Of a DNA stretch of 64,000 nt, positions 32,595-58,575 are shown in pieces. Location: NCBI GenBank assembly GCA_046570105.1, contig JBKHVI010000001.1, positions 96,001-160,000 of the forward strand. The letters are read 5' to 3'. Both the position numbers and the translations under genes were made by a program. This DNA comes from Bacteriovoracia bacterium. GTDB lineage: Bacteria; Bdellovibrionota; Bacteriovoracia; Bacteriovoracales; Bacteriovoracaceae. Positions within the stretch are counted from its first letter, which is position 1. Every line of letters begins with the position of its first letter. A model generated the notes under the pieces. That model did not search any database. It was given only the letters and a program-made list of their open reading frames with translations, and had not been told where the DNA came from.

Positions 32595-32627
32595 GTTTCA
32601 CTCCATTTAAGTGCAGGAAGAGTTTTC

Positions 32628-32661: not shown

Positions 32662-32670
32662 AACTTTCGT

Positions 32671-33810: not shown

Positions 33811-33961
33811 GAAATCTCCTTGTTTCAAAATGACGTTGGTCATTCCTAAATTAAGCAAACAAATAACTTTATACGTTAAGTGTGTAAGTGTTCTTTCTTT
33901 TTGGCAATACTGTTTTTGTTGGTTGCATTTTGCATAGGGGCAAACTCATTGGTCCTATCAA

Positions 33962-34561: not shown

Positions 34562-34681
34562 GAGTAGTCCTTGGTTGATGGTCTTAAGATAGAGTTTAGG
34601 AAGAGGCGCTGAGCGAAATCAAGCATGACTCTTTGAGTTAGCCTAATCTGATGCATTTACGTCAAGTTTCTGACGCAAAGT

Positions 34682-35791: not shown

Positions 35792-35801
35792 ACCCCCATT
35801 A

Positions 35802-35847
35802 TATACAGGTGTATAAAAAAGTCACTTCCATTTTATACATGTGTATC
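35802..35847. promoter_or_regulatory. Twin palindromic operators over the ATPase promoter
   Basis: TATACA-GG-TGTATA (35802) and TATACA-TG-TGTATC (35834); TATAAT on minus strand at 35803-35798. Confidence 0.6.
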
Positions 35848-35871
35848 AAACGGGGGACACCTCTCAAAGTT

Positions 35872-41057: not shown

Positions 41058-43976
41058 ATGAGCAAAAATACAGAGACCCAAACGGGTGACTCTCTATTAT
41101 CGAATGCCAATAACGCTTCTTACGAAACGTTCGCTCAGCCTTTAACTGGGCAGCTCTTGCGTGCTCTCGAACTCAACGTGGTTTATCACCAGGGTCACGG
41201 CCAATGGCTCACAACTGAAATAGCCGGCGAAACTCGTCGAGTGCTGGATATGACGGGTGGTTATGGTGCTAACTTACTCGGACACAAAAATGCGCGTATT
41301 GCTCGTATCGCACAAGATTATTTAAGTGAAGGTGAACCCAATCTTATTCAAGGATCGAATCGCGCTAAGGCCGGTGAACTCGCACAACGAATAAGCGAAA
41401 TTCTTTATGCTGAAACTGGTGAAGGTCCATGGATAACGACTCTTTCTAATTCTGGAACTGAAGCAGTTGAAGCTGCTCTTAAGCATTGCTTACTCGCTTT
41501 TGGAAAAAAACAACAAGAACGCCTCCAAGATCTACAAAAAGGTCTGAACGAAGTTCATCTCTATGTACAAGAACTTGATGAAAACCAACTAGCTGCACTG
41601 ACTCAAGATTGGCGCTACCGCCTGATCAATATGTGCGCTGATATTAAGGCTTCTGATAAACGCAAAGATTGGCTCCTGCACATGGCGCTTCAGACCCACG
41701 ACATGATGGGCCTCATAGACCTAGTTCATGAGTTTAACAAACTCCAATTAAGTGAGATCCCTCTCACGGTATCACTTGAACGCGCCTACCATGGTAAAAC
41801 AATGGGTGCACTTCATCTGACCCATAATCAGAAATATCGTTATCCGTTTTATGTGTCGGAAGGACAGAATCGCTTTTTGCCTCCCCACGCTGATGACGTA
41901 CAACTTGAGAAATTCTTTACCGACCTAAAATTTGATATTATTGAAATCGGCCTTCATCAAATAGGTCTCTTCTTTGGTAAAACAACTTTCACCCGTGTCG
42001 CTGGTTTATTTGTTGAACCCATTCAAGGTGAAGCGGGTGTCTATCCACTCGATGCAAACTATCTTGCTTTGTTGAAAAAATACTCTCTCAAAGACGGTTT
42101 CTCACTGGTGTTTGATGAGATTCAAGCTGGAATGTATCGCACCGGACTGATGGCTTCAGGTCACCACTGTCATGTCACAGCAGATATCTACTGTTTTTCA
42201 AAAACGCTTGGGGCAGGTGTTGCCAAAATCGGCGCTACGACAATTCATCATAAAAAATACCAAGAAGACTTCGGTCATCTCCACGCATCAACATTTGCCG
42301 AAGATGGTTATTCAGCAGCAGTGGCACTTGAAGCAATAGAAATTATCACTCAATCAGGGCATCTCACACGCGGTATGAGCGCTGGGGATAAAATCAAGAA
42401 AGGTCTAGAGACTCTCCAAGATAAGTATCCACATCTGATCGCAGGTGTTCGAGGCAGAGGCCTCATGTTGGCATTCGAACTAAGTCCCAACTTGAGCAAG
42501 ATTTGTTTTGAATTTAATGTATTTAATGAAGCTGGCATGCTGGGATATCTCATTGCTTCAGCTATGCTTCATCGTGAAAATATTCGCATGACTCCTTCAT
42601 TGTCTAATGGAGCGACACTTCGAGTTCAACCCAGTTTGTTTATCACTGACGAAGAAATTCTCTATTTCTTGATCGGCCTTGAGAAAATATTAATGCGTCT
42701 GGATGACGGCGATTTCCGCTATTTCTTTCAACATTTATATCCCGACACCCCATTGGCCGATATCAAGGCCCAAGGTCTCACAACAGAATTCACACCCTCG
42801 GATAAACCCTTAGCGGTTTTCTTATGTCACTTAATTGATGCAGATCACGTGAAACGAGTTACTCCTGCATTCATACCTGTTAAAGATGCCACCTTAGAAT
42901 CACGCTTGGGACTTATGAAGCGTGCGATGGAATTTGGTATTTACCACGCCCAACCCCTTAAAGGTGCGGACGGCAGCGAGATCAATATTATCCTCATGGG
43001 TATTCCAACAACCTCGCAGGAACTTAAGAAAAGTTTTACCGGTAAACAGCGCTCTGAGGTTATTGCCAAGGTTCAAAGAGCAGTCGATTTGGCAGCTGAA
43101 CTGGGTGCTAATACTGTAGGCCTGGGTCAGTTTACTTCAATTGTATCAGGGAATGGTCTCTACCTTGATTCACATGGTATGAATCTCACCACCGGAAATT
43201 CATTTACTATCGAGCTGGCAATTCAAGCTGCACTCCGAGAAGCGCAAAACAAAAAAATAGATATCTCATCTTCTTCTGTAGGATTAGTAGGAGCAGCCGG
43301 AAATATCATTTCAGTTGCAGCCATGATTATGGCAGACAAGGCTTCACGATTAGTCTTGATACACCATTCTCCAATCGAGAAGAGCCCTAAACTTTTAGGA
43401 GTTGTTCGCTCGATACTTAAAGAATCACTCGATTCCAGAGAGAACTCTGTATTTAACCAACTATTGAATGATCGATTAAGTATTGATGTTCTGAATTCGG
43501 ACAAAGCCCTAATAGGATGGCTCAATTCTGGTAATCAACACGATCTCATCCAGATTACCGACGATGTTACCGCTTTAAGTTCTTGTGAGATTATTATCAC
43601 CGGTGCGAGTAGCGGTACCGGTTTCCTTGAACCTCAGCATTTTACCAAAAACGCGGTCGTAGTAGATGTCGCCGTTCCAGCGAATATCAAACCAGATGTT
43701 CTCGCTCGACTCAAAACTGAGCGACCAGATGTGACTTATTGTTTAGGTGGAGTGGCCAAACTTCCACACCTACAATCCATCGTCACACCGTTATTCCCAC
43801 TCGATACCAATGAAAGCTTTGCTTGTATGGCAGAGACGTTTGCAATGGGTTTCCTCGGTAAGAAAAATTTAAAGCACATTGGTAATCTGACCAAAACCAT
43901 GGTTAACCATACAGCTCAATTCACTATGGATGCTGGCTTTACTCTAGGTTCTACAAAAACGAAGAGCTCTCTCTAA
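41058..43976 (+). CDS. Class III aminotransferase fused to an acyl-ACP (thioester) reductase, TamH-like
   Basis: NSGTEAVEAA, YHGKT, EPIQGE, FDEIQ, FSKTLG; C-terminal LGQFTSIV, TTGNSFT, GAAGNI, FACMAE. Confidence 0.8.
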   Translation: MSKNTETQTGDSLLSNANNASYETFAQPLTGQLLRALELNVVYHQGHGQWLTTEIAGETRRVLDMTGGYGANLLGHKNARIARIAQDYLSEGEPNLIQGSNRAKAGELAQRISEILYAETGEGPWITTLSNSGTEAVEAALKHCLLAFGKKQQERLQDLQKGLNEVHLYVQELDENQLAALTQDWRYRLINMCADIKASDKRKDWLLHMALQTHDMMGLIDLVHEFNKLQLSEIPLTVSLERAYHGKTMGALHLTHNQKYRYPFYVSEGQNRFLPPHADDVQLEKFFTDLKFDIIEIGLHQIGLFFGKTTFTRVAGLFVEPIQGEAGVYPLDANYLALLKKYSLKDGFSLVFDEIQAGMYRTGLMASGHHCHVTADIYCFSKTLGAGVAKIGATTIHHKKYQEDFGHLHASTFAEDGYSAAVALEAIEIITQSGHLTRGMSAGDKIKKGLETLQDKYPHLIAGVRGRGLMLAFELSPNLSKICFEFNVFNEAGMLGYLIASAMLHRENIRMTPSLSNGATLRVQPSLFITDEEILYFLIGLEKILMRLDDGDFRYFFQHLYPDTPLADIKAQGLTTEFTPSDKPLAVFLCHLIDADHVKRVTPAFIPVKDATLESRLGLMKRAMEFGIYHAQPLKGADGSEINIILMGIPTTSQELKKSFTGKQRSEVIAKVQRAVDLAAELGANTVGLGQFTSIVSGNGLYLDSHGMNLTTGNSFTIELAIQAALREAQNKKIDISSSSVGLVGAAGNIISVAAMIMADKASRLVLIHHSPIEKSPKLLGVVRSILKESLDSRENSVFNQLLNDRLSIDVLNSDKALIGWLNSGNQHDLIQITDDVTALSSCEIIITGASSGTGFLEPQHFTKNAVVVDVAVPANIKPDVLARLKTERPDVTYCLGGVAKLPHLQSIVTPLFPLDTNESFACMAETFAMGFLGKKNLKHIGNLTKTMVNHTAQFTMDAGFTLGSTKTKSSL

Positions 43977-45076: not shown

Positions 45077-46397
45077 CGGTCAGCTTCCTCATGACAACCA
45101 CAACATTGCTAGTGGGCCGTAATGTGATTCCAGCTTCCACTGTTTGCTCAACTTCATTCTCAATCGACCAACGAAAGTTGGCCGAGAGGTGAGACAATAT
45201 AAGTTTCGCCTCAACTTGAGCAAAAATTTTCCCTATACACATACGAGGTCCAAGCCCAAAGGGGAAATAGGAACCTGGCAGAACTTTTTCTTTAAGAGGT
45301 GGCAGAAATCTTTCTGGATAAAATTTCAATGAATCGTGCCAGAAATCCGGTGATCGCTGGGCAAAAAACGGCATTAAAAAAACGATATCCTTCTTTTTAA
45401 GCTCCAAGCCATTTATCTTGATCGCCTTACTGGCCTGTCTCATAAAAGCCCAGACTGGGGGCCACAAACGCATTGCCTCTTCAGTGACTGCTAAATGCAT
45501 ATTGAGCTTATTAAAATTTGCCTCAATGAGTTGATCATTTTGCCAAAAGCTTTTGGACTCATCTTTAAGCACGTCTAGATATTTAGAATTCTGAGCTAGC
45601 AGTATCATCGTCCAGGCCATGGTATTGGTAATCGTTTCGTGGCCGGCCATCAAAATAGTTATAACTTCGTCTCGGATCTGTTGATCGCTCATCTGGTTGC
45701 CGTCTTCATCACGCGTATCAACTAGGATTTGTAACAGATCATTTGATTGTTGGCGCCCGGAACGGCGATCTATCAAAAGACGCTTGATCAAATTATCAAA
45801 TCTATCTCTTGCAGCATAAAACTCTTGGTGACTTGCCAGCGGCATCCACATGGGAGCTGAAACAACTGAGCGCACTCTCTTAATCAAAAAGTGCATCATA
45901 TACTCAACATCTTTTAAGAATGTGGGTGCTTCTTGTGAAAGATCGAGCGCAAAAAGTGTGCGGGCAATAATTTTAAGCGTCAGTGCATTCATCTCAGCGT
46001 GAGCATTTATCTTTTGCCCATCGGCCCAGACGCAATGTTGCTCAATAATTTCTTGAATTGATGGAACTAAATTCATCATATGTTTAATGCCAAACACAGG
46101 ACGCATTAAACGATTTTGCTTCTTCCACAAATCACCTTCACTGGTAATGAGCCCTTCACCCAATAGAAGTTTCAGCTTTTGAAAAGTACGACCTTTAGCA
46201 AAAGATTCGGAATTTTCCTGTAATACACCTAGGATATCGTCGGGATGAGACAAGAGATAGGCACGTTGATGGAGCATCCTCAGTTTTACTCTATGGCCAA
46301 ACTCATGGTGGCATTTATTTACAAAGGCCCAAGGATCACGAGCATACTCGCGCAAACTTCCCATTGGGCCTGATGCTTTTGGGCCTTTAATTTCCAC
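45066..46397 (-). CDS. Cytochrome P450
   Basis: AGHET, EAMR, PERF, FGLGPRMCIG; GTG start at 46397 after GGAG. Confidence 0.95.
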   Translation of the reverse strand: MEIKGPKASGPMGSLREYARDPWAFVNKCHHEFGHRVKLRMLHQRAYLLSHPDDILGVLQENSESFAKGRTFQKLKLLLGEGLITSEGDLWKKQNRLMRPVFGIKHMMNLVPSIQEIIEQHCVWADGQKINAHAEMNALTLKIIARTLFALDLSQEAPTFLKDVEYMMHFLIKRVRSVVSAPMWMPLASHQEFYAARDRFDNLIKRLLIDRRSGRQQSNDLLQILVDTRDEDGNQMSDQQIRDEVITILMAGHETITNTMAWTMILLAQNSKYLDVLKDESKSFWQNDQLIEANFNKLNMHLAVTEEAMRLWPPVWAFMRQASKAIKINGLELKKKDIVFLMPFFAQRSPDFWHDSLKFYPERFLPPLKEKVLPGSYFPFGLGPRMCIGKIFAQVEAKLILSHLSANFRWSIENEVEQTVEAGITLRPTSNVVVVMRKLTDGN

Positions 46398-48906
46398 TGA
46401 TCTCCACCTTTCCCTCATCAGCATTGAGGATAATATGGGGAATTCCTCTCAATTGATTAACGGCACCTCTAATTCCTACAACAGTAGGTATTCCTAACTC
46501 TCGGCCAATTATGGCGGTGTGACTTAACAATGATCCCTTCTCAGAAATGAGGCCTCTGCATTGGGACATAATATAGACCCAAGCTGGGTCGGTGTGACGA
46601 GTGACAAGAATGCAATTGGAGAGATCTTCAATCTCAAGGGCTTCTTCTGGTGAATCTAAAACCAGTGGTCGGCCCTCAACTTTTCCTGGGGCTGCTGTTT
46701 GGCCAATTAACAAACCTTCAGACGGAGTGAGTTCAACCGATTTAAAGGGTGTCTCACCCACTGCAGTAACTAAGAATTCTGGAAATGGCCCTTGAGCCTC
46801 TTGCCAGCTTTTATTTTTTTCAAGCAAGTCTGCTAATTCGGAATTGGTAATTTTCCCTTCCGCAAATCTTTGGTACTCTTCGAGAGAAATGTTGAAATAG
46901 TCTCGCCACTTAAAAATCTGAAACGAAGGATAATCTTTGCGTAACTGTTCAGCTGCGTGGGCCAGCATTTCACGAATCACATTATAGAACTGACCACGCA
47001 ACAAACGCGTTTTTTCACGCCAGAAGATCGCTCGCTTCGTCACACTCCAACTTATCTTCCAAGCAAACTGCTTCGGGAGAGAGAAACTTTTCACATCAAA
47101 CTGTGTTTTTGCTGGTTGCTTAAGGCCGGCGCTCATAATTCTTCGACGCATGAAACGCAGCAGGCGATAAAAATCTTTAGGAGATTGCCTTAAAGTAGGA
47201 CTCTCTAATTTCAACTCTTCGAATGAACGTTCTCCGTACTGCTGAAGGAAACCTGCTAGCAATGCGGCTTCTTTCTTCCAGCCTTTCTGCTCTAGCTCGT
47301 TCCAGATGGGATGATAGACATCTCCCCACTCAGGGGCGGTTGAAACTGAAGCTTCAAGATGCGGCCAAAAATCTTCGGGGATTTGAGACATGACTTTTTC
47401 TAGAAGGGCGAGTGGCTTCAACGATTCTACTTCATCACCAGTTTTCAGCATTGGCGCGAGAACATCTTCACCAAGTCCTTTGGTTTTTAGCAACGCAGCT
47501 AAAGCCTTTACTCCAATCATCAAAACCACATCGTTGATAATGGTTAAGCCAAACCCCAAGGGCCGGGTCAGAGTTTGGTGCAAGAGTCGCAAGGTTTCTT
47601 CTGAGGTTGAAGAGCCCATCAACCGATCATGGAGAATCTTCTTCTGAGCTTCTAAGCTTTCAGCGAAACGATCTAAAACGCGTTGATGAGTGCAAATAAA
47701 GGCGAACAGTTTGAAAGCAGCTTTAAGTTGTTCGAAAATATTTGGAGGATTGAGGATCATGGGAACATCCATGCCATCTCTTTTTCCCCCAATCATCCGG
47801 TGCCAATTTTCAATATTCTTCTCACCGCCAGGTAGGGCAGCAATGACTGCATAATAATGTTCAAGATCGTAATAAAGATGATGGTTCACTTGCCCAATCA
47901 AGGACTGATAGTGAGGCATTAGTTTTTTCAAACGATCACTTGATGCACCCAAGATGATCGCCGACTCGGCAAAAACATTGCGATAAGCAATTTGCACAAA
48001 ACTAGTGGTTAATGGAGAAGTTACACCTGGGTACGACTCCGCAAGATTGGTATCTGTATATGATTTTAGCGGCGAGAATTCCTGAGTGATAGGTCGAACC
48101 TGTAAGAGATAGAGCATTTCTCCTTCAAAGGCGAACTCGATATCAACGGGATGCCGTAAACGCTTTTCAATTCTTAAAACTTCATGAACAATTTTCTGAC
48201 GCTCTTCCAGTGTTAAACTTGCACTGGCCTGTAAATGAGCTTCCACTGGAAATCCTGATGTGCCTGAACCATCTGGGCTTGAACCCAATCGAGTTGTTTT
48301 AATGCTTAACCGCTCATCCAACATTTCATTAAGACGCGAATATCTCCAATGATCTGTTTCAACCAGCCCCGAAACAACTCCCTCGCCCACTCCCCAAGAA
48401 GCATCAATTACGATATCGGCCGTGGGAATTATAGGTGAGCGCGAGAATGCGACTCCAGCTGCAATTGGGTCAAGCATCTTTTGGACAACAACGGCCATAT
48501 GTAATTCATCAGTAATTCCCTTCTCGCGGCAATATACTTTAACTCGGTCAGAGTTAAGTGCTACATATGCAGCTTGAATTTTTTCTTTGAGATCTTTTGT
48601 TGTCACATAAAGATACGTTTCAAATAAACCAGCAAAGCTCGCTGACTGACCATCCTCTCCTGTAACTGATGAGCGAACGGCGACCCAGCGGGCATCCCAT
48701 TTTTTTACTTCTTTCTCTATGGCCTGCCAGCACTCTTCTGGAAACTGACCTTGTGAGTTTGTCCATTGTGAAACAGCAGTTGGGATCACCAGAAAAGGTG
48801 GAACGTTAGCACCCAACTCAACTAGTTTTAAGAGTTGAGCACCTTTACCTCCGACGAGTGACTTTTCCGCGCGCGTTGGTGGAATTATCGGGAGTAGAGA
48901 GCTCAT
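46387..48906 (-). CDS. PEP-utilising-enzyme family phosphotransferase (rifampin phosphotransferase / PigC architecture), copy 1
   Basis: VGGKG, AVRSS..ED..SFAG, DIEFA, LQVRPIT; central helical domain; C-terminal GSLLSHTAIIGRELGIP; ATGA-coupled start at 48906. Confidence 0.9.
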   Translation of the reverse strand: MSSLLPIIPPTRAEKSLVGGKGAQLLKLVELGANVPPFLVIPTAVSQWTNSQGQFPEECWQAIEKEVKKWDARWVAVRSSVTGEDGQSASFAGLFETYLYVTTKDLKEKIQAAYVALNSDRVKVYCREKGITDELHMAVVVQKMLDPIAAGVAFSRSPIIPTADIVIDASWGVGEGVVSGLVETDHWRYSRLNEMLDERLSIKTTRLGSSPDGSGTSGFPVEAHLQASASLTLEERQKIVHEVLRIEKRLRHPVDIEFAFEGEMLYLLQVRPITQEFSPLKSYTDTNLAESYPGVTSPLTTSFVQIAYRNVFAESAIILGASSDRLKKLMPHYQSLIGQVNHHLYYDLEHYYAVIAALPGGEKNIENWHRMIGGKRDGMDVPMILNPPNIFEQLKAAFKLFAFICTHQRVLDRFAESLEAQKKILHDRLMGSSTSEETLRLLHQTLTRPLGFGLTIINDVVLMIGVKALAALLKTKGLGEDVLAPMLKTGDEVESLKPLALLEKVMSQIPEDFWPHLEASVSTAPEWGDVYHPIWNELEQKGWKKEAALLAGFLQQYGERSFEELKLESPTLRQSPKDFYRLLRFMRRRIMSAGLKQPAKTQFDVKSFSLPKQFAWKISWSVTKRAIFWREKTRLLRGQFYNVIREMLAHAAEQLRKDYPSFQIFKWRDYFNISLEEYQRFAEGKITNSELADLLEKNKSWQEAQGPFPEFLVTAVGETPFKSVELTPSEGLLIGQTAAPGKVEGRPLVLDSPEEALEIEDLSNCILVTRHTDPAWVYIMSQCRGLISEKGSLLSHTAIIGRELGIPTVVGIRGAVNQLRGIPHIILNADEGKVEISGN

Positions 48907-49784
48907 CCCCACCAGCCTGCCGTGATGAGAAAAAGTACCGTCCAGAGAATTTGATTTTCGGCCCAGAACTTTAAAGGCTTTTTTGTTTTGATTGTTCGCC
49001 AATAATTAAACACCGGCAGCATGAGTCCTAAGAATCCTAAAGCATAGATGATATTCCAAAGCAAATGGCAGCCCATGGCTTGAATCAAATAACTACCCGT
49101 GGCAAGTACGATCAGCTGAATGACTAAGGCCGCCAGGCTTGCTGGACGTGGGCCCCAGATTTTTGAATATGTGGTATAAGTGTTTTCTTCTTTAGGCATA
49201 CGAATTTTTCGACAGAGTTCCCAATTCGTCATCATCAATACCAGAGGGAGAATTGTATATATTTGCCATTGCTCAACGGCATATGAGGTTGTCTGATTAA
49301 CTGTTAACAAATACATGAAATGAAAAATAACGATTGGATGATGAGTCACTAAAGCTAAAGGGAGTGACGCCTTCATCTGCTCTTCTCTGAAAAACCACTT
49401 GAGCATCAAGAATGAATAAAGCAATGACCCCATCGCCATATACAGAACTTCTTCGGACCAAACTGAAACTGCTAAGGTGATAAAAACACAGAACCACCCT
49501 AAAACGAGTAGGTCTTTTTTGAGCACGCGTCCCGATGGTACTGGACGTTTCGGATAATTAATTTTGTCGTCTTCAAAATCTTTAAACTCATCTTTTACAC
49601 GCAATAGAAGTGAGAAGAAGCATAAGGCAACACATCCTAACAGCGTGTGCCACTGAAAAGGATGATAAGGTGAGCCGCCTAATCTCCATGCGACAGTGAG
49701 CACCATAAATCCAAGCGAAAATGTGCCAAACCAACTCGACAGAGGATACATTTCACGCAAATAAATAAATATCCGCTTCAGCAT
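48903..49784 (-). CDS. UbiA-family prenyltransferase-like membrane protein
   Basis: DEFKDFEDD...RPVPSG; polytopic. Confidence 0.8.
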   Translation of the reverse strand: MLKRIFIYLREMYPLSSWFGTFSLGFMVLTVAWRLGGSPYHPFQWHTLLGCVALCFFSLLLRVKDEFKDFEDDKINYPKRPVPSGRVLKKDLLVLGWFCVFITLAVSVWSEEVLYMAMGSLLYSFLMLKWFFREEQMKASLPLALVTHHPIVIFHFMYLLTVNQTTSYAVEQWQIYTILPLVLMMTNWELCRKIRMPKEENTYTTYSKIWGPRPASLAALVIQLIVLATGSYLIQAMGCHLLWNIIYALGFLGLMLPVFNYWRTIKTKKPLKFWAENQILWTVLFLITAGWWG

Positions 49785-49790
49785 AAGTTC

Positions 49791-50339
49791 CTACAATGGG
49801 TTCTTTCTTAAACCCAAGCTCCATAGCAAAACATTGATTAGTAAATGAATACCTGTACCGAGTAGAAATAGTGTCACCCATAAGGTGAAATTCCCCACTC
49901 CGCACAGCGCGTAGATCAAAACGCAACCTATGACTGAGTCGGCCTGATCAATCAGTGAGAATACCCACGGAGAACGCTCGGACATCTCACCAGGCTTAAC
50001 ACCCATTCTTCTTTTGATAAATGAATTAGGAAGCTCAGGTATCACGTAGCCAAAACCTAAGAGTATTCCTAATCCCCAGACGGAATGAGTTCCAAAAAGT
50101 GAAGACTGCCAATCTTTAGCCAAGAGAAATGAAAGCCACAATCCCACAACGGTCAAGAGCGGCATAACTACAACGCCACGCCATGTTTTATTCAGGCCAA
50201 ACCAAGTTTCATGCAGAGGGATTTTCAAGTAAGATAAAGCATCCAGTTTCACAATGATCATGTGAACGATCCCCGCTAAAACAAGCGGAAGGGTCATGAT
50301 GAGCGCATTCTGCCAAAAGAGTGCATCTGAAATGGACAT
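49791..50339 (-). CDS. CDP-archaeol synthase (CarS)-like cytidylyltransferase
   Basis: GLNKTWRG, ELPNSFIKRR, DQADS. Confidence 0.75.
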   Translation of the reverse strand: MSISDALFWQNALIMTLPLVLAGIVHMIIVKLDALSYLKIPLHETWFGLNKTWRGVVVMPLLTVVGLWLSFLLAKDWQSSLFGTHSVWGLGILLGFGYVIPELPNSFIKRRMGVKPGEMSERSPWVFSLIDQADSVIGCVLIYALCGVGNFTLWVTLFLLGTGIHLLINVLLWSLGLRKNPL

Positions 50340-50358
50340 GGTTCTATTATATGTGGAA

Positions 50359-51603
50359 GTGAGCAAAGTGAACGGAGAAAACCGCTATTTGGCTAAACTT
50401 GCTGTGAAGAACATCAACCGCAATCGCGGAAGAAGTTTTTTCATCGGACTTTCTGTCGCCATGTCGGTAGTTATGGCCGTATGGATTCTGGCTTTCTTTG
50501 ACGGTCTTAATCATCAAATTGAAAATGCGGTAGTTAAAGGGAACGTCGGACACTGGCAACTTCAAGAAAAAAATTACGGCCTCACGACTGACCCCACAAC
50601 TCCTGTTCCATGGGATATTCAATCACTCGATGGCTTCGATAAAAAAATAATTCAAGCTCAATCTCCAGAACTCGTGCTCGATGGGTACATCTCTGGCACC
50701 GAGGGCAATGCTGCTCTTCAAGTCGTGGGAGTCGACTTCAAACTTCATCAAGAGATGTTCAAGCTTGCAGACCACATAACTTCTGGTCATTGGCCTGTTC
50801 AAACTGAGCGTGGAATTGTTATCGGTCAAGAAGTAGCAGAGCAATTTCAATACGCCGTAGGTGACTCAATTGTTATCAATTTTCAAGATACCAAAGGTGA
50901 ACTTCGTAGCGAACTTTTGCCCGTTCTTGGCATTTATAATCACAACGGCCGCAGCTTTGAGCGTAAATACGCTTATGTCAGTGGCGATGTCGTCGAAGAG
51001 TTTCTATTTGGTTCTGCTGATCCAAAGTTTCTCATCCATCGTGTCGTTCTGATTACAAATGAATTAGCTCAGAGTGAGACAACAGTCGCTGCTGCGGCTA
51101 AAAAAACCGACCTCACCTATAGTTCTTGGAAACAGATCAACCCAGAAATGGGAGTTGTTCTTGATTTCCACGAAGGCCTGATACGTTTCTTTTTTGTTAT
51201 CATTGCCATTACTGTCACTGTAACCATTCTTACTCCTGTCAGCATGCTATGGCATGAACGACTGAGTGAAATTCGTATGATGTCCATTATTGGAGTTCCT
51301 AAGAAAAAAATCTGGCGTCTCGGGATGTTTGAAGCAGTGCTAATGACTTTTCTGGCTGCCACTACAGCTGCTTTTTTTATTCTTGTTATTGTGGGTTTGC
51401 ACACCAAAACAGGTATTGATTTTCGTGATATCTCCAACGGTCAAATCATGGAGCGTGCCGGCATCCAATTGCCACGTACAGTATTTCCTCGACTGTTACC
51501 CAAGCAGCTACTCGTCACGTATGGTTTTGTCATTTTGATCATCACGACCAGTTATGCTTTCGCAATTCGTGGCGTGCTTAAAAAAGCGGAGAACATCGCA
51601 TGA
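50359..51603 (+). CDS. LolC/E-MacB-family ABC permease
   Basis: KNINRNRGRS, large periplasmic domain, ERLSEI...IG; start uncertain (GTG 50353, 50359 or 50368). Confidence 0.8.
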   Translation: MSKVNGENRYLAKLAVKNINRNRGRSFFIGLSVAMSVVMAVWILAFFDGLNHQIENAVVKGNVGHWQLQEKNYGLTTDPTTPVPWDIQSLDGFDKKIIQAQSPELVLDGYISGTEGNAALQVVGVDFKLHQEMFKLADHITSGHWPVQTERGIVIGQEVAEQFQYAVGDSIVINFQDTKGELRSELLPVLGIYNHNGRSFERKYAYVSGDVVEEFLFGSADPKFLIHRVVLITNELAQSETTVAAAAKKTDLTYSSWKQINPEMGVVLDFHEGLIRFFFVIIAITVTVTILTPVSMLWHERLSEIRMMSIIGVPKKKIWRLGMFEAVLMTFLAATTAAFFILVIVGLHTKTGIDFRDISNGQIMERAGIQLPRTVFPRLLPKQLLVTYGFVILIITTSYAFAIRGVLKKAENIA

Positions 51604-52808
51604 GCCGCTGGTTATTTCTGATCAAATTCTCATGGCGCAATCTCGGCAGACAACCTTTGCGCACACTCATCATGGCACTGGGCCTTTGTTTTGGCACAGG
51701 CTATATTATTTTTGCCCTTAACTTCTCCGCCTCAGGCTCCAAAGAAATCGTCAACGATTTCCTCGCGCAATATACCGGTGATCATCAACTGGTCGCTCCT
51801 GGCTATTACCCAGATAATGACAAAAAGAAATTTGATCCACAAAAAACACTTCTTGAATCAAATTTTGAGAATTTTGATCGTACTCGCTACACTCAGCGAA
51901 TAACTTTGCCAGTTTTCCTCTCTACTCCTAAAAAAACCCAAGGCACTCTACTTACAGGCCTTGTGCCTTCGCAAGAATTGCGTCTTTCAAATGTCACAAA
52001 AGCTCTCTCGCAAGGCCGCTTCTTAAGTGACGAAGGTCGTAATGAATTGCTGCTTGGAGAAAAGCTGGCTCGCAAGATTGGAGTGACTTTGGGCGGAGAA
52101 GTCGCCGGTATCTCACAAGGCCTTGATGGTTCAACCGCAGTAGATTTATTTACCGTCGTTGGGTTGATGAATTTTGGTGGCGGTGACATGGAGGAGTATG
52201 TAGCCTTCACCTCACTGGCGAGCACGCAAGAGTTTGGTGTCTTTCCGCAAGGTGGATTTCATCAATGGGTGAGTTTTGGCACTTTTGAGTCAAAAGTTCC
52301 AAAAGCACCCGAGGGCACTGAGCTTGTTCCGTGGGATGTAATCCTGCCTGAAATTAACGGTTCGATTCGTTTCATCGATATTTTCACTTGGATCGTGGCC
52401 GTCATCATTGTGGTAGTGATTAGTCTTGGAATGGGTAACACCTTGATGATTACCTTTCTCGAACGGCAGAAAGAGTTTTACTCTCTGAACGTCATCGGCG
52501 CACGCTCTTCTTGGATTGCCGTTTCACTTGCTTTTGAAGTCCTCTTCTTAGGCATTATTGGCATTGGTACTGGGGTGATCTTAGGATTCTTAGTCACGAC
52601 CCTTTTCCACTACTACCCTATTAGCCTTAAACTCTTTACCGGTGGCAAAGCGATTATGATGGGTGGAATGGCCATCATTCCCAAGATTCGACTATCTCAC
52701 TATTCTCATTATTACTGGCAAGCACCACTCCTGGTGTTTAGCTTTTTGTCTTTGAGCCTCATCCTGCCGATTCATAGGATTATTCAAAGGAGCCGTCGTG
52801 CTGATTGA
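51600..52808 (+). CDS. LolC/E-MacB-family ABC permease
   Basis: WRNLGR, ERQKEF...IG; ATGA overlap. Confidence 0.85.
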   Translation: MSRWLFLIKFSWRNLGRQPLRTLIMALGLCFGTGYIIFALNFSASGSKEIVNDFLAQYTGDHQLVAPGYYPDNDKKKFDPQKTLLESNFENFDRTRYTQRITLPVFLSTPKKTQGTLLTGLVPSQELRLSNVTKALSQGRFLSDEGRNELLLGEKLARKIGVTLGGEVAGISQGLDGSTAVDLFTVVGLMNFGGGDMEEYVAFTSLASTQEFGVFPQGGFHQWVSFGTFESKVPKAPEGTELVPWDVILPEINGSIRFIDIFTWIVAVIIVVVISLGMGNTLMITFLERQKEFYSLNVIGARSSWIAVSLAFEVLFLGIIGIGTGVILGFLVTTLFHYYPISLKLFTGGKAIMMGGMAIIPKIRLSHYSHYYWQAPLLVFSFLSLSLILPIHRIIQRSRRAD

Positions 52809-53478
52809 AATGCAAAACCTCACTAAAACCTATGGTGAAGGCGATCAACTGGTTCATGCCACTCGAGGCGTGAATTTAGAAATCGTCGAAGGTGATTTTA
52901 TCGCGGTGGTAGGCCCATCTGGCTCAGGTAAAACGACTCTTCTGAACTTGCTCGCAGGCCTTATTGGACCCACCTCCGGAACAATTAAACACCGTAACAA
53001 AGAAATTCAGACTCTCTCTCTCGAAGAGAGAACAGCGCATCGTCTCGCCAACATGGGATTTGTTTTCCAAGACTACCAACTGCTTCCAGTTCTAACCGCG
53101 AGAGAAAATGTTGAACTACCTTTACAGATGCGTGGCGAGCCTCAAAATGAAATAAATCAAAAAACCAAATGGGCCCTTGAGCAAGTCGGTCTTGGCACCA
53201 TGATGAATCGCTATCCCAAGCAGCTCTCCGGTGGACAACAGCAGCGTGTCGCGATTGCTCGTGCCGTTGCCGGAAAACCATCACTTATCCTCGCCGATGA
53301 ACCTACCGCCAACCTTGATTCAAAAACCGCCCAAGATATCATTGATTTGTTTAAACGACTCAATCATGAATATAAACTGACATTTGTCTTCTCTACCCAT
53401 GATCCTCGTCTGATTGATCAGGTAAAGCGTGTGATAAGAATTAAAGATGGTCAGACTCAAGAAGGAAAAGAGCTATGA
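52798..53478 (+). CDS. LolD-like ABC ATPase
   Basis: [36 protein letters not shown]. Confidence 0.92.
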
Positions 53479-54212
53479 AATTGAAAAAAGAAATTTTCTT
53501 TTGTGTCGCTGTTGGCGGTGCTCCGGTTAAGACAGCTGATCAGTGGCTTAAATACATGGAAGACCAAATGCGCGGAGATCAATCCAAAGCAGAACTCACC
53601 ATGTTGATCAAAACACCCAGCTGGGAGCGCCAGCTTGAAATTCGCTCCGACGTCAAAGGTAAAGACGAGGCATTGACCTTCATTGATGCTCCGGCAAAAG
53701 AAAAAGGCACCGGCACACTTCGTTTGGGCAACAACATGTGGAACTACTTTCCAAAACTCAAACGCAAAGTCACTGTCTCACCTTCCATGTTACTCGCTAA
53801 CTGGATGGGTTCAGACTTTACGAACGATGACCTTCTAAAAGCCTCGAGCATGTATGAAGACTACTCTCATACCTTCACTCCCGACCAAACTGTCGATGGT
53901 AAGACTTACAAAGTAATCAATAATCTTGCGAAGTCCGATGCCAAAGTAATCTGGCCTCGCATTGAAACGCTCGCCGACAAAAAAGATTGTCTCCCTCGTT
54001 TTCATCGTTATTACGATAAAAAAGGCGAACTTATTCGCACATTGGCACTTTCAGAAATAGCTACTTTTGATGGCCATAAAGTTCCCAAGCGTTGGGTGAT
54101 GACACCCCATAAGAAAGAAGGCCAACAAACTGAGATGATTTATAAGAAGCTCCAGTTTAAAGTCGACTTCAAATCAAGCCACTTTTCATTGCAAAACTTA
54201 ACAGGCAACTAG
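53475..54212 (+). CDS. LolA-like outer-membrane lipoprotein-sorting protein
   Basis: APAKEKGTGTL, MWNYFP, WMGSDFTNDDL, FSLQNL. Confidence 0.8.
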   Translation: MKLKKEIFFCVAVGGAPVKTADQWLKYMEDQMRGDQSKAELTMLIKTPSWERQLEIRSDVKGKDEALTFIDAPAKEKGTGTLRLGNNMWNYFPKLKRKVTVSPSMLLANWMGSDFTNDDLLKASSMYEDYSHTFTPDQTVDGKTYKVINNLAKSDAKVIWPRIETLADKKDCLPRFHRYYDKKGELIRTLALSEIATFDGHKVPKRWVMTPHKKEGQQTEMIYKKLQFKVDFKSSHFSLQNLTGN

Positions 54213-55424
54213 ATGTTCAAGCTGCTTATTTTATTTCTTCTGCCGATCTCCGCTTTCGCACTTCCTAAGTACGAGAAAGGTGATTTTAGCTTAGAAGTCT
54301 CTGGCAACGTTGAAGGACAAGCTCGCAAACTCTGGAATCCCACTTCAGCGAAACGTTTTCCCCTGCTGCAAGATTGGAAAGAGTCTGAATATCAAATGGG
54401 GATGGCGAACCTCAACATCAGAGCGGAATTTAAAGAGTCTCGTATTGAAGCTAATTGGTTTGGCCGAGTCGCCAACTCACCTCTCTACGGCGATGGTTTT
54501 GAAGCTCCTAAGCTGATCACATTTCCAAGAAAACTCGTAGCGCGAGATGTATTTCGCTTAGATTACTCACGCCAAGATGGTGACCAGCAAATCGATTCAG
54601 TACTTAACAAGTTTTACTACGAACTTGATGGTGAAGACTCGCGTTTTGCCTTTGGTCGTCTTTTCATCAACTACGGCGCCGGCGAAGTCTTTAATCCTGT
54701 TAATCCCTTCAATCAACCATTGGGCCTGGCGGCGCAAAGTAATATCGCTCAAGGTAATGATGGAATGAAGGCGAGCTTCTATCCCAGCGATCGTCTCAAT
54801 CTCAATTTCTATCTCTTAGGTAATAAACGCCAAGAAGATTACGAAAATCAAATCACACGAACATTATGGCTTCATGGTGATTACCGCATGGGCGATAGTC
54901 TTCAATTTGATTTTGTAATGGGTGAAGATCAGAAGAGAAACAAGATTGGTGGTCAAGTCAGCTATATCCTGGGCGAAGCCATGATCTTTGCACAGCTGCT
55001 TGAATCCTCTGCTTTTATCGATGGTAAATCGAGCCAGCAGATTAGCGATATTCTTCTTGGCTACGATCATCAATTCACCGCCGCGTGGCACTTTCGCCTT
55101 GAACTCGGTCATCAAGAGCGCGATCAAGTTTTACTCGAGGCTGACCCAGCGGCTCTAGGCGATCGTCTACTTCCTTACGAATACTTCATCGCCATCGCCC
55201 AAACCTATGAAGTCCATCCGCTGGTCAAAACCTCTGCGACTTTCATCCACGACTTCAAAACTCGCTATGTCTATGGTCTGGGCCGTGTCACCTGGTCTGT
55301 CTTTAACGATATCGAATGGGATTTCTTCGCCAATGTGCCGATTTATTGGATCGAAGATGAATCTAATCTCGTACAAAAGATTTTTCCGACTGAAGTGGGA
55401 ACGAGTCTGAGAGTCTTTTTCTAA
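54213..55424 (+). CDS. Outer-membrane beta-barrel-like protein of the ABC operon
   Basis: Signal peptide; GR..INYG.G.VFNP; C-terminal F. Confidence 0.7.
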   Translation: MFKLLILFLLPISAFALPKYEKGDFSLEVSGNVEGQARKLWNPTSAKRFPLLQDWKESEYQMGMANLNIRAEFKESRIEANWFGRVANSPLYGDGFEAPKLITFPRKLVARDVFRLDYSRQDGDQQIDSVLNKFYYELDGEDSRFAFGRLFINYGAGEVFNPVNPFNQPLGLAAQSNIAQGNDGMKASFYPSDRLNLNFYLLGNKRQEDYENQITRTLWLHGDYRMGDSLQFDFVMGEDQKRNKIGGQVSYILGEAMIFAQLLESSAFIDGKSSQQISDILLGYDHQFTAAWHFRLELGHQERDQVLLEADPAALGDRLLPYEYFIAIAQTYEVHPLVKTSATFIHDFKTRYVYGLGRVTWSVFNDIEWDFFANVPIYWIEDESNLVQKIFPTEVGTSLRVFF

Positions 55425-55431
55425 AAAAATC

Positions 55432-55761
55432 TTAGATATAGACCGCGATCTGTTGAGCCTCATCGTCTTCAATCACAAGACTAATCTTCACTTTCATGCC
55501 CATAGCTTTTGCATATTTAGCGAGTGTTGAAATTTTCATATCTTTACGACTTTCAATTTTCGAGACCTCAGGCTGAGTAAGCCCCTTAAGTTCAGTCTGA
55601 TTCAACCCAATAAACTCTCTTGCCATCTTTAGACGAAGTTCGCTCGCTCTGATTTGGCCTTTTTTAACCGCACGTTTGAAAGATTTGTCACCCATCGTTT
55701 TTTTGGCATGTGAAAAAAAATCGGGATTATATTTGCTAGCTTTTTTCTTCATAGTTCTCAT
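55432..55761 (-). CDS. XRE-HTH antitoxin (HigA-like)
   Basis: LTQPEVSKIESRKDMKISTLAKYAKAMG; downstream of the toxin; start inferred. Confidence 0.85.
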   Translation of the reverse strand: MRTMKKKASKYNPDFFSHAKKTMGDKSFKRAVKKGQIRASELRLKMAREFIGLNQTELKGLTQPEVSKIESRKDMKISTLAKYAKAMGMKVKISLVIEDDEAQQIAVYI

Positions 55762-55765
55762 CCTG

Positions 55766-56125
55766 TTAAGTTTTCGATCTATTTCCCAGGTAGCGTAAAT
55801 AAATCTTCTCACTCTGCTCAATCATCGTTTTGTAGAATTTCTTATCTCCACTGCTTGATTTATTCCCACCGATAAGAAGTACTCCATTTCGATTTGGATC
55901 AAATACATAAAAAATTCGTATAACCCTTTCTCTGCTATTGAATCGTAACTCTTTTAAATTAGAAATTACGCTGGCCCTAAGTGTATCTGCATAAGGTCTT
56001 CTGAGTTCAGGCCCTAGTTCTCTTAAAAGTTCCACATGCTCTAATATATCTTCCTGAAGCCGTTTATCTGATCCGTCAAACCAGTCTTGGAACTCTGGAG
56101 TTTGCACAATATTCCACACTCTCAT
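55766..56125 (-). CDS. RelE/HigB-family (Gp49-like) toxin
   Basis: LGPELRRPYADTL...NLKELR...RIFYVFDPNR..VLLIGGNK; start ATG 56125 or GTG 56119. Confidence 0.88.
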   Translation of the reverse strand: MRVWNIVQTPEFQDWFDGSDKRLQEDILEHVELLRELGPELRRPYADTLRASVISNLKELRFNSRERVIRIFYVFDPNRNGVLLIGGNKSSSGDKKFYKTMIEQSEKIYLRYLGNRSKT

Positions 56126-56141
56126 TATACCCCCAAAAGCA

Positions 56142-56159
56142 TATGCATTCAAATGCATA
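56142..56159. promoter_or_regulatory. Operator palindrome of the TA promoter
   Basis: TATGCATT-CA-AATGCATA just upstream of a minus-strand TATAAT (56129-56124). Confidence 0.6.
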
Positions 56160-56313
56160 CCAGAAACGGTCGCAAGCTGTGATAATGTCGTTAGTGAACG
56201 TCATAACCCACCACTTTTGAGCTTTTACGCTGGCATGCGGGAAGAAGCTCATTTTATTGGCAGAAAATGTGATTTTTTTCGATTAGGAAACTAATCTTTA
56301 GAAGTATTCATAC

Positions 56314-58575
56314 TTATTTCAAAATCTCCACCACACCCGTTCTACCATCGACACGCACGCGCATGCCCGTCTTAAGTTTCTTGGTGGCACCCGTGAGATT
56401 TAGCACGGCTGGAATGCCGTATTCGCGGCCAATAACAGCCGCATGAGATAATACCCCACCCACCTCAGTGATAATCGCTGAAGCGCGTGCCATGGTGGGT
56501 GTCCAGCCAGGGTCAGTGAATTTTGTGACGAGAACTTCACCGCTCATAAGAAGGTTCGCCTCTGATAAATCCAAAACGACCCGTACCACTGCCTCGACCT
56601 CACCACTTGAGCAACCAATGCCTTGTAGCCCTGAGGTATCTTTTGAAATCGTCAGTGCACCACCGAACTCGTTCGGTGCTTCAAAGTTGCGATAGCCTTT
56701 CAAAAGCAAATCTCTTTTGCGCCATTCTTTTTTATTGGGGATATCTTGGCTCACAAATTCATCGAACTTTAAAAGATGAATCTCGCCCGCCTTTAGGCCC
56801 AAGCGTCTCTCACCTTCAAGCAGCATTTTCCTGACCAGGTAATACGCTCTTGTGGAGTACGCCCGCATGCTCTCTCTTTGCGTTAGGTAATTACGCGCAC
56901 GTAGTAACTGTCGCTTCACTTGATTTTTCTCAAACAGATTCCAGCTCCAGCGAGTCTGAAGTGAGCGATCTAGCCGTTCCCATTCATCCTGCCAATTTTC
57001 ATTTGAATGATGTTGAGCCGGTTTGACGTCTTTAAGCATTTCCAGAACACGAACTGGATTTTCACCCCAGCGTGGCACGGTTAAATCAAGTTCCACGTCG
57101 CCATGATGATAATGCCGCTCGAGAAATTGATTCAGGCTTTCTTGAAAGCTCGCTTTGCCTTCATGCTTCTTGAGATTTTCCAGATCACTCAGAATATCCA
57201 TGTGACTCATCTTATCTAGATTTGAGAGCAGTTTGAGAAGGTCACAACCCGGATTAAGCTTTGTGATCTTATTTTTAAGATCGGTTTGAAAATTGGAATT
57301 GTTATAAATTGTGCGAAAGTAACTCGTTTCAGTACGAAATTGATACGCATCGACCTCGCGAACTAATTGCCAAAAATCGCGGTCATTGAGTTCCTGACAA
57401 CTCTCAACTCTTGGTCTCAGCCTTTGATCTTGTCCTTCAAACCAAGCTGGAAATTTTTCCAACATGCGTTCACAGTTTTGGTATTCAAATGTCACTGCTG
57501 CTAGCGCGTTTAATGCAACTAAGACGGATTGCGGAGTGATCCCCGTTTTCTCTGGGCCCTTTGCCCCGTAGTCTTTGGTAATACCTAGACCCTGATCAAA
57601 AACTTTTTCATCGTAACCAGGAATGCGCTTCAAAGCTTCTTTAACCACTCCTGCATTCCAAAATCCTCTTCCATAGAGATGATACATCCATTGATAAGCA
57701 TCCCCTGAGCGCAGGAGCGAGATGTCTTCAAAATAGCGGCCCATAGAAGATTGCAGTGCACGTTGATAGAGTGAGTACATCATCGGGGGACAAACACGTG
57801 CTGATATGCCGCCATCTTTTAAATCAGCATTGGTGAGTTCCGGCACATCTCTGCGCCAGGCCACATGGGTAACAGGACGAGCTTGCAGAATCCAAATCTT
57901 GCCGGCGGGATCAATCGCCCATTCGATATCTTGCGGATGACCGTAGTGAGTTTGAATTTCCAGTGCAAGCCGAGTGAGAACTTTTAATTCATTATCAGAG
58001 AGCCCGGTCTTTTCATCATTAATCTCCGCCGATACAACTACTTCTTCACTCCAATCATAGCGATAGCGCGAAGGAGTTACATGTCCTGACACCAATCTCT
58101 CTCCAAGACCGGCACAGACTTCGATATAAAAAATTTCTTCCTGTCCCAAGACGGGATCAATCGTGAACAGCACCCCCGCTCTTTCGGCTGGCACCATTTT
58201 CTGCACCATCACGCGCATGCTCTTTTCTAACTCGTCTTTCGAGATAGTCTGTCCGTGAGTTTGAAGATAGTCACGCACACGCTCAGATTGACTGGAGTTA
58301 AAACACTCTTCAATGGCATTTTTGAGTTGCGCCTCATCCTGGATTCGCAAGATCGATTCGTACATACCAGCAAAGCTGGCATCTCCCAGATCCTCAATGG
58401 TGCCCGACGAGCGAGCGGCGACGGGATATCCCCCGATTTTGGCGACCTCTTGGGCTAAGTCACGAGCCTCGCCCCTCGAAGGAACAATAAAAAAGGGCGG
58501 AACGGGCATATGTATCGCCTCGAGCTCCCTTAAGCGCCCTGCCTTACTACCCGCATCATGAAAAACTGATACCAT
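56314..58575 (-). CDS. PEP-utilising-enzyme family phosphotransferase (RPH/PigC architecture), copy 2
   Basis: AGSKA, ARSS..ED..SFAG, QDIEWA, LQARPVT; C-terminal TDPGW...GGVLSHAAVIGREYGIP. Confidence 0.9.
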   Translation of the reverse strand: MVSVFHDAGSKAGRLRELEAIHMPVPPFFIVPSRGEARDLAQEVAKIGGYPVAARSSGTIEDLGDASFAGMYESILRIQDEAQLKNAIEECFNSSQSERVRDYLQTHGQTISKDELEKSMRVMVQKMVPAERAGVLFTIDPVLGQEEIFYIEVCAGLGERLVSGHVTPSRYRYDWSEEVVVSAEINDEKTGLSDNELKVLTRLALEIQTHYGHPQDIEWAIDPAGKIWILQARPVTHVAWRRDVPELTNADLKDGGISARVCPPMMYSLYQRALQSSMGRYFEDISLLRSGDAYQWMYHLYGRGFWNAGVVKEALKRIPGYDEKVFDQGLGITKDYGAKGPEKTGITPQSVLVALNALAAVTFEYQNCERMLEKFPAWFEGQDQRLRPRVESCQELNDRDFWQLVREVDAYQFRTETSYFRTIYNNSNFQTDLKNKITKLNPGCDLLKLLSNLDKMSHMDILSDLENLKKHEGKASFQESLNQFLERHYHHGDVELDLTVPRWGENPVRVLEMLKDVKPAQHHSNENWQDEWERLDRSLQTRWSWNLFEKNQVKRQLLRARNYLTQRESMRAYSTRAYYLVRKMLLEGERRLGLKAGEIHLLKFDEFVSQDIPNKKEWRKRDLLLKGYRNFEAPNEFGGALTISKDTSGLQGIGCSSGEVEAVVRVVLDLSEANLLMSGEVLVTKFTDPGWTPTMARASAIITEVGGVLSHAAVIGREYGIPAVLNLTGATKKLKTGMRVRVDGRTGVVEILK

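Follow-up and report, generated by a model that had tools for sequence, protein, structure and literature searches.

The archaeal ether-phospholipid route employs a UbiA-family enzyme, that is, DGGGP synthase, together with a CarS-family enzyme (as described in the available portions of PMC4244643 and PMC7852524). The enamine branch of tambjamine biosynthesis employs the AMP-binding protein TamA, the reductase/aminotransferase TamH, which reduces a CoA ester and then transaminates to yield a fatty amine, and the PigC homologue TamQ, within a cluster that carries permeases and an ABC transporter as well (available portion of PMC6667630). Both of these systems share features with the subject of this report, which is a locus at positions 41058-58575 of a 64,000-nucleotide stretch of DNA (the whole of which is here called ‘the window’) from a member of the Bacteriovoracaceae. 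Phytol salvage, which in plants and cyanobacteria proceeds via the CTP-dependent kinase VTE5, then VTE6, and then a UbiA-family phytyltransferase (in plants, homogentisate phytyltransferase), supplies a third comparison. Predatory Bacteriovoracia remodel and cross the envelopes of other bacteria; their own envelope lipids are, to our knowledge, poorly known.

The locus is vertically inherited within the Bacteriovoracaceae and, going by protein domains and modelled folds, its most likely product is a non-canonical amphipathic membrane lipid that would be delivered to the outer membrane, a reading in which we place modest confidence. It is a family-wide set of approximately 12 genes, the core of which, i.e., UbiA, a kinase of rifampin phosphotransferase (RPH) type, and a tandem GNAT, is found in at least five other phyla-level groups. 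Should the product be a membrane lipid, then it would represent a new lipid class. Enzymes of RPH/PigC type, until now associated with the inactivation of antibiotics and with pigment condensation, would in that case have a biosynthetic role, and a second Lol-like machine would be moving a lipid rather than a lipoprotein. The original prediction for this locus had cautioned that the product is not deducible from sequence, and with this we agree.

Organisation and conservation of the locus

The 14 proteins of the locus, taken from an open reading frame (ORF) listing, were scanned against Pfam and NCBIfam, and 16 flank proteins were likewise examined for domains. All of the genes and domains previously named between 41058 and 58575 are present, and in the order described. 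Encoded on the minus strand are, in order, a CarS-like CTP-dependent membrane enzyme (49791-50366, likely start 50339; PF01864), a divergent UbiA-superfamily transferase (48903-49784; PF01040), a kinase of RPH/PigC architecture (46387-49002, an ORF of 871 aa, of which approximately 839 aa follow from the likely start at 48906), a cytochrome P450 (45066-46424; PF00067), and a tandem-GNAT acyltransferase of 367 aa (43973-45076), recognised by the fold of its AlphaFold model. Divergent from the CarS-like gene is a plus-strand operon, consisting of permease 1 (50296-51603), permease 2 (51600-52808), a LolD/MacB-like ABC ATPase (52798-53478), a candidate LolA_like periplasmic carrier (53475-54212; PF17131), and a 403-aa outer-membrane beta-barrel (54213-55424), porin-like by the fold of its AlphaFold model. 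To the left, a 972-aa aminotransferase fusion (41058-43976, plus strand) is convergent with the 367-aa gene, and to the right is a second RPH-like phospho-His kinase, of 753 aa (56314-58575, minus strand). The UbiA and kinase genes are translationally coupled, the ATGA at 48903-48906 being common to the UbiA stop and the likely kinase start, and the remaining gene junctions either overlap by 4-38 nt or abut, so the earlier description of a coupled operon was apt. With homologue-supported starts, the divergent CarS-like and permease genes begin only some 20-30 nt apart (50339-50370), such that the promoter of each should lie inside the coding region of the other.

With the UbiA alignment 57 loci were retrieved, 37 of which have a UbiA that is at least 38% identical (‘type-1’), and 18 of those 37 have full flanks. 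Among these 18, the CarS-like gene is present in all and in all is adjacent to UbiA. The 871-aa kinase and the GNAT are each found in 17 of the 18, each of the five exporter genes in 16, the 753-aa kinase in 15, the transaminase-reductase (i.e., the fusion) in 14, and the P450 in 13. The gene lgt is likewise present in 13, with the usual position of the locus being between obg/L21 and lgt; in the window the block is bordered on its left by lgt, approximately 1 kb from the cluster's edge, plus a gene for a 266-aa protein, and on its right by rplU-rpmA-obg. Five same-genus contigs display the same gene order. Relatives possessing UbiA homologues or related loci are found among the Bacteriovoracaceae, Peredibacter, Bacteriovorax, and Halobacteriovorax. 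In marine Halobacteriovorax (loci L041 and L044), the transaminase-reductase gene is directly upstream of UbiA, and near the core are a CarS-like gene, a 753-type kinase, phosphatidylserine decarboxylase (Psd), MMPL, and an FA_desaturase-family gene. FA_desaturase genes are found as well beside UbiA or GNAT in L048, L050, L052, and L032. Gene-neighbourhood conservation had been proposed as a check, and the genes indeed co-occur in the 18 full-flank loci, with the core pair found across phyla. By these sequence comparisons the gene arrangement is not due to chance, its conservation being well in excess of that, with the two divergent operons plus both flanking genes forming one conserved functional unit.

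Enzymes, exporter, and more distant relatives

As all of the NCBIfam equivalog scores fall far under their cut-offs, no protein of this locus can be filed as a named enzyme. What homology and fold support, that is, are domain identities; substrates and step order we infer.

The UbiA-like protein matches PF01040 at 40.8 bits (cut-off 34.2) and NF010118 at 139.4 bits (cut-off 443), and on the NCBIfam DGGGPS models it attains 21-35 bits, versus cut-offs of 269-353. The best solved match to its profile is a DGGGP synthase (6m31, E 1.7e-5), the match being confined to profile positions 47-128, i.e., the region of the first motif. That first Asp-rich motif and then RP.PSG are present, with D65, E66, D69, D73, R80, P81, P83, S84, and G85 invariant across 16 sequences. 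The clade is small and distinct: A profile of the 16 sequences, run against 1.84 billion representatives, yields 2040 proteins at E<=1e-3, 1310 at E<=1e-10, and 227 at E<=1e-30. Among the top 150 clade representatives, three (P0175, P0207, P0215) carry at the N-terminus a fused polytopic domain of approximately 250 aa, which displays an invariant D-T-x-A-A-x-V-G-x-R-x-G ... K-x-x-E-G-S-L-A-F-F stretch. For this domain no match was found in Pfam, NCBIfam, or PDB, and profile comparison showed no similarity between it and the CarS-like alignment; the named Atlas clusters closest to it are ‘phytol kinase family’ (0.91; PF01148 in 18% of members) and DUF92 (0.90).

In L078 there is a second UbiA paralogue belonging to this UbiA clade (11441-12337, plus strand; NF010118 124.5 bits), where it has no RPH-like partner. 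It lies directly 3' of lptC/A-like, lptB-like, rpoN, and hpf genes, and downstream of it are three unknown genes, a GH3-family adenylating enzyme, and a Rieske oxygenase.

The CarS-like protein matches PF01864 at 40.9 bits (cut-off 22) and the NF003114 equivalog at 54.5 bits (cut-off 148). Its profile matches that of Aeropyrum CarS (5guf, E 5e-4), the alignment taking in the KRR...G and DQxD stretches. By sequence it is likely to be either a CTP-dependent cytidylyltransferase or a CTP-dependent kinase. Adjacent UbiA-family and CarS-family genes are what this locus has in common with the archaeal route, including in terms of closest solved relatives, which are DGGGP synthase and Aeropyrum CarS. 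The DGGGPS and CarS model scores nevertheless are far under cut-offs, the C-terminal half of the UbiA is unaligned, and PcrB/GGGPS (PF01884) was not found in any of six carriers, that is, neither in the window's genome (0 of 1; 87.8% complete) nor in five others (0 of 5, including a complete Peredibacter genome), in a search for which controls were positive in seven known genomes. An earlier hint toward archaeal prenyl-ether lipids, if taken to mean the canonical archaeal route, does not survive this absence. We know of no counterpart in the archaeal pathway, moreover, to the locus's RPH-like kinases, GNAT, P450, or transaminase-reductase.

Both kinases possess the RPH architecture, which is an ATP-grasp (PPDK_N) domain, a central domain, and a C-terminal swivel-His (PEP-utilizers) domain, without a phosphoenolpyruvate (PEP)-binding domain. 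For the 871-aa kinase, PPDK_N scores 178.9 bits and PEP-utilizers 70.8 bits, with no PEP-utilizers_C, and for the 753-aa kinase the two scores are 171 and 85.7 bits. The best solved relative of the 871-aa kinase is the Listeria rifampin phosphotransferase (5hv1/5fbs, E ~2e-41), while its best NCBIfam model is NF004881 (398.9 bits, cut-off 883). The two kinases score 199 and 252.9 bits on the RPH model NF041857 (cut-off 999) and 150 and 173 on NF000283 (cut-off 1700). On PigC/RedH models they score 226 and 249 bits (NF052631, cut-off 1300) and 187 and 250 bits (NF052632, cut-off 1350). Unlike RPH, which is a stand-alone resistance gene, they are under the RPH cut-offs and reside, with translational coupling, within a biosynthetic operon. 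The two are approximately 23-25% identical to each other, and both of the genome's RPH-like genes are inside this locus; in L041, L044, and L047 the 753-type is the only RPH-like gene beside CarS/UbiA. A third PPDK_N gene, just upstream of the window, is a true PPDK with PEP-utilizers_C and is unrelated to the cluster.

The P450 matches PF00067 at 241.2 bits, and its nearest NCBIfam models are terpene oxygenases, all of them below cut-off. The 367-aa protein has no Pfam or NCBIfam match. Its AlphaFold model, however, based on a 17-sequence alignment and with a pLDDT of 83.4, is matched by Foldseek to tandem GNATs, with MAB_4324 on top (7q3a, E 4.5e-12) and others extending to ~1e-6; further matches are 5kf1, 2wpx, and MshD (2c27), and these include a glucosamine N-acetyltransferase and a clavulanate-pathway tandem GNAT. 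Its Atlas neighbours are N-acetyltransferase clusters, and homologues in L062, L057, and L070 match PF00583. Judged by modelled fold, this protein is a tandem GNAT, and its earlier naming as a GNAT was correct.

The 972-aa fusion matches Aminotran_3 at 196.6 bits, indicating a class-III aminotransferase dependent on pyridoxal phosphate (PLP), and its best NCBIfam model is PigE (262.8 bits, cut-off 850). Its C-terminal approximately 400 aa (403) match the N-terminal part of PigE (4ppm, E 1.5e-7) and, if only faintly, a cyanobacterial acyl-ACP reductase (6jzu, E 0.15), and residues 638-935 share 25% identity with the reductase-like C-terminal portion of proteins of 674-698 aa encoded in related clusters. 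With a reductase-like C-terminal domain joined to an aminotransferase, the fusion thus has the reductase-plus-aminotransferase logic of TamH/PigE, and a fatty-acyl-derived amine is, in terms of sequence, a reasonable product for it. The order of parts differs, the aminotransferase being N-terminal here versus C-terminal in the PigE model (profile positions 510-732 of 837). As for the 674-698-aa proteins (L062 5370-7466, L066 13826-15871, L021 5291-7315), their N-terminal approximately 370 aa are without detectable family.

In the same-genus L021, and in L020, a trio of genes separates the CarS-like gene from the first permease gene; they encode a 674-aa reductase-like protein, a fatty acyl reductase (FAR) with NAD_binding_4, and a DAGK_cat kinase, i.e., of diacylglycerol kinase (DAGK) type. 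Among the 37 type-1 loci, the fusion is present in 20, the trio in four (L020, L021, L032, L048), and both in none; as many of these loci are incomplete, with L032 showing FAR and DAGK only before its end, this mutual exclusion is a pattern rather than proof. Stretches of approximately 60 aa at 46-48% identity to the fusion, in L021 (15871-16053) and L022 (5849-6028), look like remnants left by gene decay. L020 ends before the fusion's expected position, and L022 ends before that of the trio. The exchange of fusion for trio suggests that a fatty amine, or instead a fatty alcohol or alkyl phosphate, may be alternative inputs to the same downstream enzymes, and as a natural swap it represents a ready-made comparison.

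The exporter has in common with LolCDE-LolA and MacB-type (type VII) systems two permeases with MacB_PCD plus FtsX domains (Pfam), one ATPase, and a LolA-fold periplasmic protein. Scores nonetheless are below every Lol cut-off. The permeases attain 58.2 and 49.8 bits on TIGR02212 (LolCE; cut-off 362), and the ATPase, at 128.5 bits on ABC_tran, attains 223.2 bits on TIGR02211 (LolD; cut-off 307.75). The carrier matches PF17131 (160.5 bits, the sole such match in the genome) rather than the LolA family PF03548, the sole genome match to which is elsewhere and weak (21.6 bits, below cut-off). Nowhere in the window's genome does a LolCE match reach the curated cut-off, though better TIGR02212 candidates are found on other contigs of that genome (88.6 and 69 bits) as well as elsewhere in all three of three other cluster-bearing genomes (105.7-127.5 bits). 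Where the transporter had been likened to Lol proteins, these scores do not support its being a true Lol system. In place of LolB there is the 403-aa barrel. That protein has no Pfam match, but (as had been anticipated in calling it an outer-membrane barrel) its model, mostly of beta strands and with a pLDDT of 76.3, is matched by Foldseek to OmpU (6ehb, E 2e-13), chitoporin (7vtz), and OprD-like proteins, and it possesses an N-terminal signal-like segment and a C-terminal ...RVFF.

Beyond these relatives, the UbiA-like/RPH-like pair recurs in Oligoflexia, Sericytochromatia, Spirochaetia, Clostridia, and Nitrosovibrio, often with a tandem GNAT and an acyl-AMP ligase. Twenty more distant loci include UbiA (at least 40% coverage) in 17, an RPH-like gene in 15, and GNAT in seven, and by Pfam an AMP-binding gene adjoins UbiA in L060, L062, L064, L066, L069, and L070. 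In Spirochaetia (L060) the gene order is DAGK, MMPL, CDP-alcohol transferase, GNAT-like, AMP-binding, UbiA, kinase, and CdsA. In Nitrosovibrio (L069) it is DUF3419, P450, AMP-binding, UbiA, and kinase, and in Clostridia (L064, L070) AMP-binding, UbiA, and kinase. Sericytochromatia (L057) possess UbiA, kinase, a GNAT-like protein, and AMP-binding; an apparent UbiA-kinase fusion there, an ORF of 1184 aa, is instead an ORF-calling artefact of GC-rich DNA, as the UbiA match (from 10001) and the ORF (from 9838) are in different frames.

In Oligoflexales and Pseudobdellovibrionaceae (L094+L062 and L095+L065), ABC, FtsX, and LolA_like genes plus one for an unknown protein of 390 aa are followed, within the same co-directional operon, by DAGK_cat, FAR, a reductase-like protein of 698 aa, DUF3419, AMP-binding, UbiA, kinase, and GNAT. 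Via these operons a Lol-like exporter is tied to the core enzymes independently of the window. The approximately 390-aa (392-aa) Oligoflexales protein that follows LolA_like would be equivalent to the 403-aa barrel by position only; for homology between the two, hhalign found nothing (probability 0.2).

Lipid-type neighbours of the core in relatives consist of DAGK_cat, FAR, CdsA, CDP-OH_P_transf, Psd, BtaA-like DUF3419, FA_desaturase, and MMPL, with a DAGK-type kinase accompanying the core where a CarS-like gene was not detected. The locus is one of a family of lipid-type gene clusters, as yet uncharacterised, that extends across phyla.

A lipid pathway and its competitors

The pathway that we envisage would begin with reduction of a fatty acyl thioester to an aldehyde and transamination of the latter to a fatty amine or, in the trio-bearing sister genomes, with reduction to an alcohol followed by phosphorylation. 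GNAT would then acylate an amino group, and the P450, or elsewhere the FA_desaturase-family enzyme found in its place, would add a hydroxyl (P450). To this the UbiA-like enzyme might attach a diphosphate-activated hydrocarbon chain, whether prenyl or alkyl. The RPH-like kinases would phosphorylate a hydroxyl or phosphate, and the CarS-like enzyme, with CTP, would activate or phosphorylate the lipid phosphate, such that general CDP-alcohol transferases may then add a head group. Two CDP-alcohol transferases are encoded elsewhere in the genome, and these could be the head-group adders. Finally, the ABC pump would extract the product from the inner membrane, LolA_like would cross the periplasm with it, and the barrel would receive it.

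A membrane lipid is preferred over a diffusible product because the enzymes that recur beside the core act in lipid activation and head-group chemistry and the core enzymes are membrane-embedded, because lipid-type exporters (MacB/Lol-like plus LolA-fold plus barrel, or instead MMPL) accompany the core, and because the chromosomal position of the locus is fixed. In proposing lipid biosynthesis along with export, the original prediction is strengthened by the conserved unit, by those lipid-type neighbours, and by the exporter within two relatives' operons, though not in its archaeal and sphingolipid hints. Concerning the latter, a link to Bacteriovorax sphingophosphonolipids had been raised, but among the locus proteins there is no phosphonate gene product and no alpha-oxoamine synthase (Spt-type), the only PLP enzyme of the 14 being class III (Spt was looked for among these proteins and not in the remainder of the genome).

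A more specific version of this pathway, which we consider speculative and on balance improbable, is that the UbiA-like/RPH-like pair plus CarS might represent a GGGPS-independent, bacterial but archaeal-style (UbiA then CarS) route to an ether- or N-linked lipid. Here the phosphate or diphosphate of a fatty alcohol or prenol would be formed by the swivel-His kinase together with a kinase of CTP- or DAGK-type, the divergent UbiA would transfer that chain to an acceptor, and the product would be CDP-activated by the CarS homologue, ready to receive a head group. Amine and alcohol-phosphate precursors would be interchangeable, and the lipid would have its own Lol-like path to the outer membrane. 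The enzyme combination of the locus as a whole is described nowhere in the literature searched, supplements and subscription journals being outside of that coverage.

Various observations weigh against a membrane lipid destined for the outer membrane. UbiA enzymes canonically carry a second Asp-rich motif in their C-terminal half, but there no D-x3-D is conserved in the 16 sequences, nor does that half of the profile align to any solved UbiA enzyme. Invariant instead are N187, W188, E189, R192, K193, E200, Y203, T205, Y206, and S207; with N-W-E..R-K and E..Y.TYS standing where that second motif is expected, the chemistry may not be prenyl transfer. By Pfam, the proteins of the window's locus include no glycerol-backbone enzyme, acyl carrier, head-group transferase, or prenyl-diphosphate synthase, so that both acceptor and donor for the UbiA are guesses. 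The core pair is found in Clostridia, which lack an outer membrane, and outer-membrane targeting would therefore have been added in particular lineages. Some loci can dispense with the P450 and the transaminase-reductase. As the related loci are kin, their counts show stable inheritance, at 40-50% protein identity, rather than independent events. Lastly, in a phylum sample queried with the 871-aa kinase, 103 of 301 genomes match at E<=1e-30, but a clear orthologue (38-41% identity) is found in only seven genomes besides the window's, with the remaining matches, at 27-32% identity, being type-2 paralogues.

The best surviving competitor, unlikely though not negligibly so, is that the locus is a secondary-metabolite cluster, in which a PigC/TamQ-like enzyme would condense a fatty amine with a carbonyl partner, the result being tailored by prenylation, hydroxylation, and acylation and then exported by the ABC transporter as an antibiotic or predation factor. 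The resemblance is to the late steps of tambjamine and prodigiosin biosynthesis, with a reductase/aminotransferase fusion, an enzyme of PEP-synthase/PigC architecture, and an ABC transporter all in common, along with permeases, and with AMP-binding genes, as TamA represents, adjoining UbiA in distant relatives. PigE is indeed the fusion's best NCBIfam model, and both kinases score on PigC/RedH models. Those scores, however, are far under the cut-offs (1300, 1350, and, for PigE, 850), and the kinases match RPH and PEP-synthase models equally well or better. No MBC bipyrrole genes are found among the 14 locus or 16 flank proteins, nor, by Pfam, are polyketide synthase or non-ribosomal peptide synthetase domains found in the 14 (their absence had been correctly reported), and UbiA, CarS-like, and GNAT are without a role in tambjamine or prodigiosin synthesis. 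The locus is no prodiginine or tambjamine cluster. A chromosomal position fixed across the family, at 40-50% identity, is more like core physiology than a mobile biosynthetic gene cluster, and the genes found nearby in relatives encode phospholipid enzymes (Psd, CdsA, CDP-alcohol transferase, DAGK, BtaA-like).

Less probable still, and in our estimation doubtful, is salvage or remodelling of prenols or long-chain alcohols, whether prey-derived or endogenous, with a CarS-like kinase and then an RPH-like kinase rebuilding a diphosphate donor for UbiA. The organisms are predators, CarS-like is beside UbiA in every full-flank locus, a DAGK-type kinase is with the core where CarS-like was not detected, and the three UbiA fusions lead, by Atlas, to phytol-kinase-like clusters. 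The parallel would be with phytol salvage, which similarly involves a cytidylyltransferase-superfamily membrane enzyme that uses CTP, along with a second kinase and a UbiA transferase; that likeness is drawn from general background together with the one Atlas lead. The second kinase here, though, is RPH-type rather than DUF92, and no aromatic-acceptor pathway is evident. The fusion domain, without match to an HMM (hidden Markov model) or PDB entry, is read as a kinase from a language-model lead. Salvage would leave the GNAT, the transaminase-reductase, and the exporter unexplained, and the core is found as well in non-predatory phyla.

That the locus is merely two unrelated neighbours, i.e., a housekeeping Lol-type lipoprotein-sorting operon beside lgt plus a chance-adjacent biosynthetic operon, is very unlikely: lgt is indeed close by, the NCBIfam names that best fit the transporter genes are LolD and LolCE, and the genome lacks both a LolCE match at cut-off and any but a weak PF03548 match, but better LolCE-like candidates exist elsewhere in all four genomes, the carrier is PF17131, an ABC/FtsX/LolA_like module is within the biosynthetic operon of distant relatives, with the module tied to lipid-type enzymes in several lineages, and in marine relatives an MMPL transporter takes the exporter's place beside the same enzymes.

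Neighbouring genes

Between the barrel gene and the 753-aa kinase gene is inserted a Gp49 (HigB-like) plus helix-turn-helix (HTH) pair (55432-56158, minus strand; PF05973, 69.3 bits). Among the loci compared, it is found only in the window and one same-genus genome (L013/L017), and it is an inserted toxin-antitoxin module outside of the pathway. Between lgt and the cluster, the conserved 266-aa protein (40097-40897, minus strand) has no Pfam match; its gene adjoins lgt in 13 of the 18 full-flank loci, and it could be part of the cluster or instead a partner of lgt. Further to the left, upstream of an SLT/LysM transglycosylase gene, ORFs of 411, 395, 199, and 367 aa without Pfam match (31359-36975, minus strand) are found around an AAA_14/DUF4143 ATPase gene.

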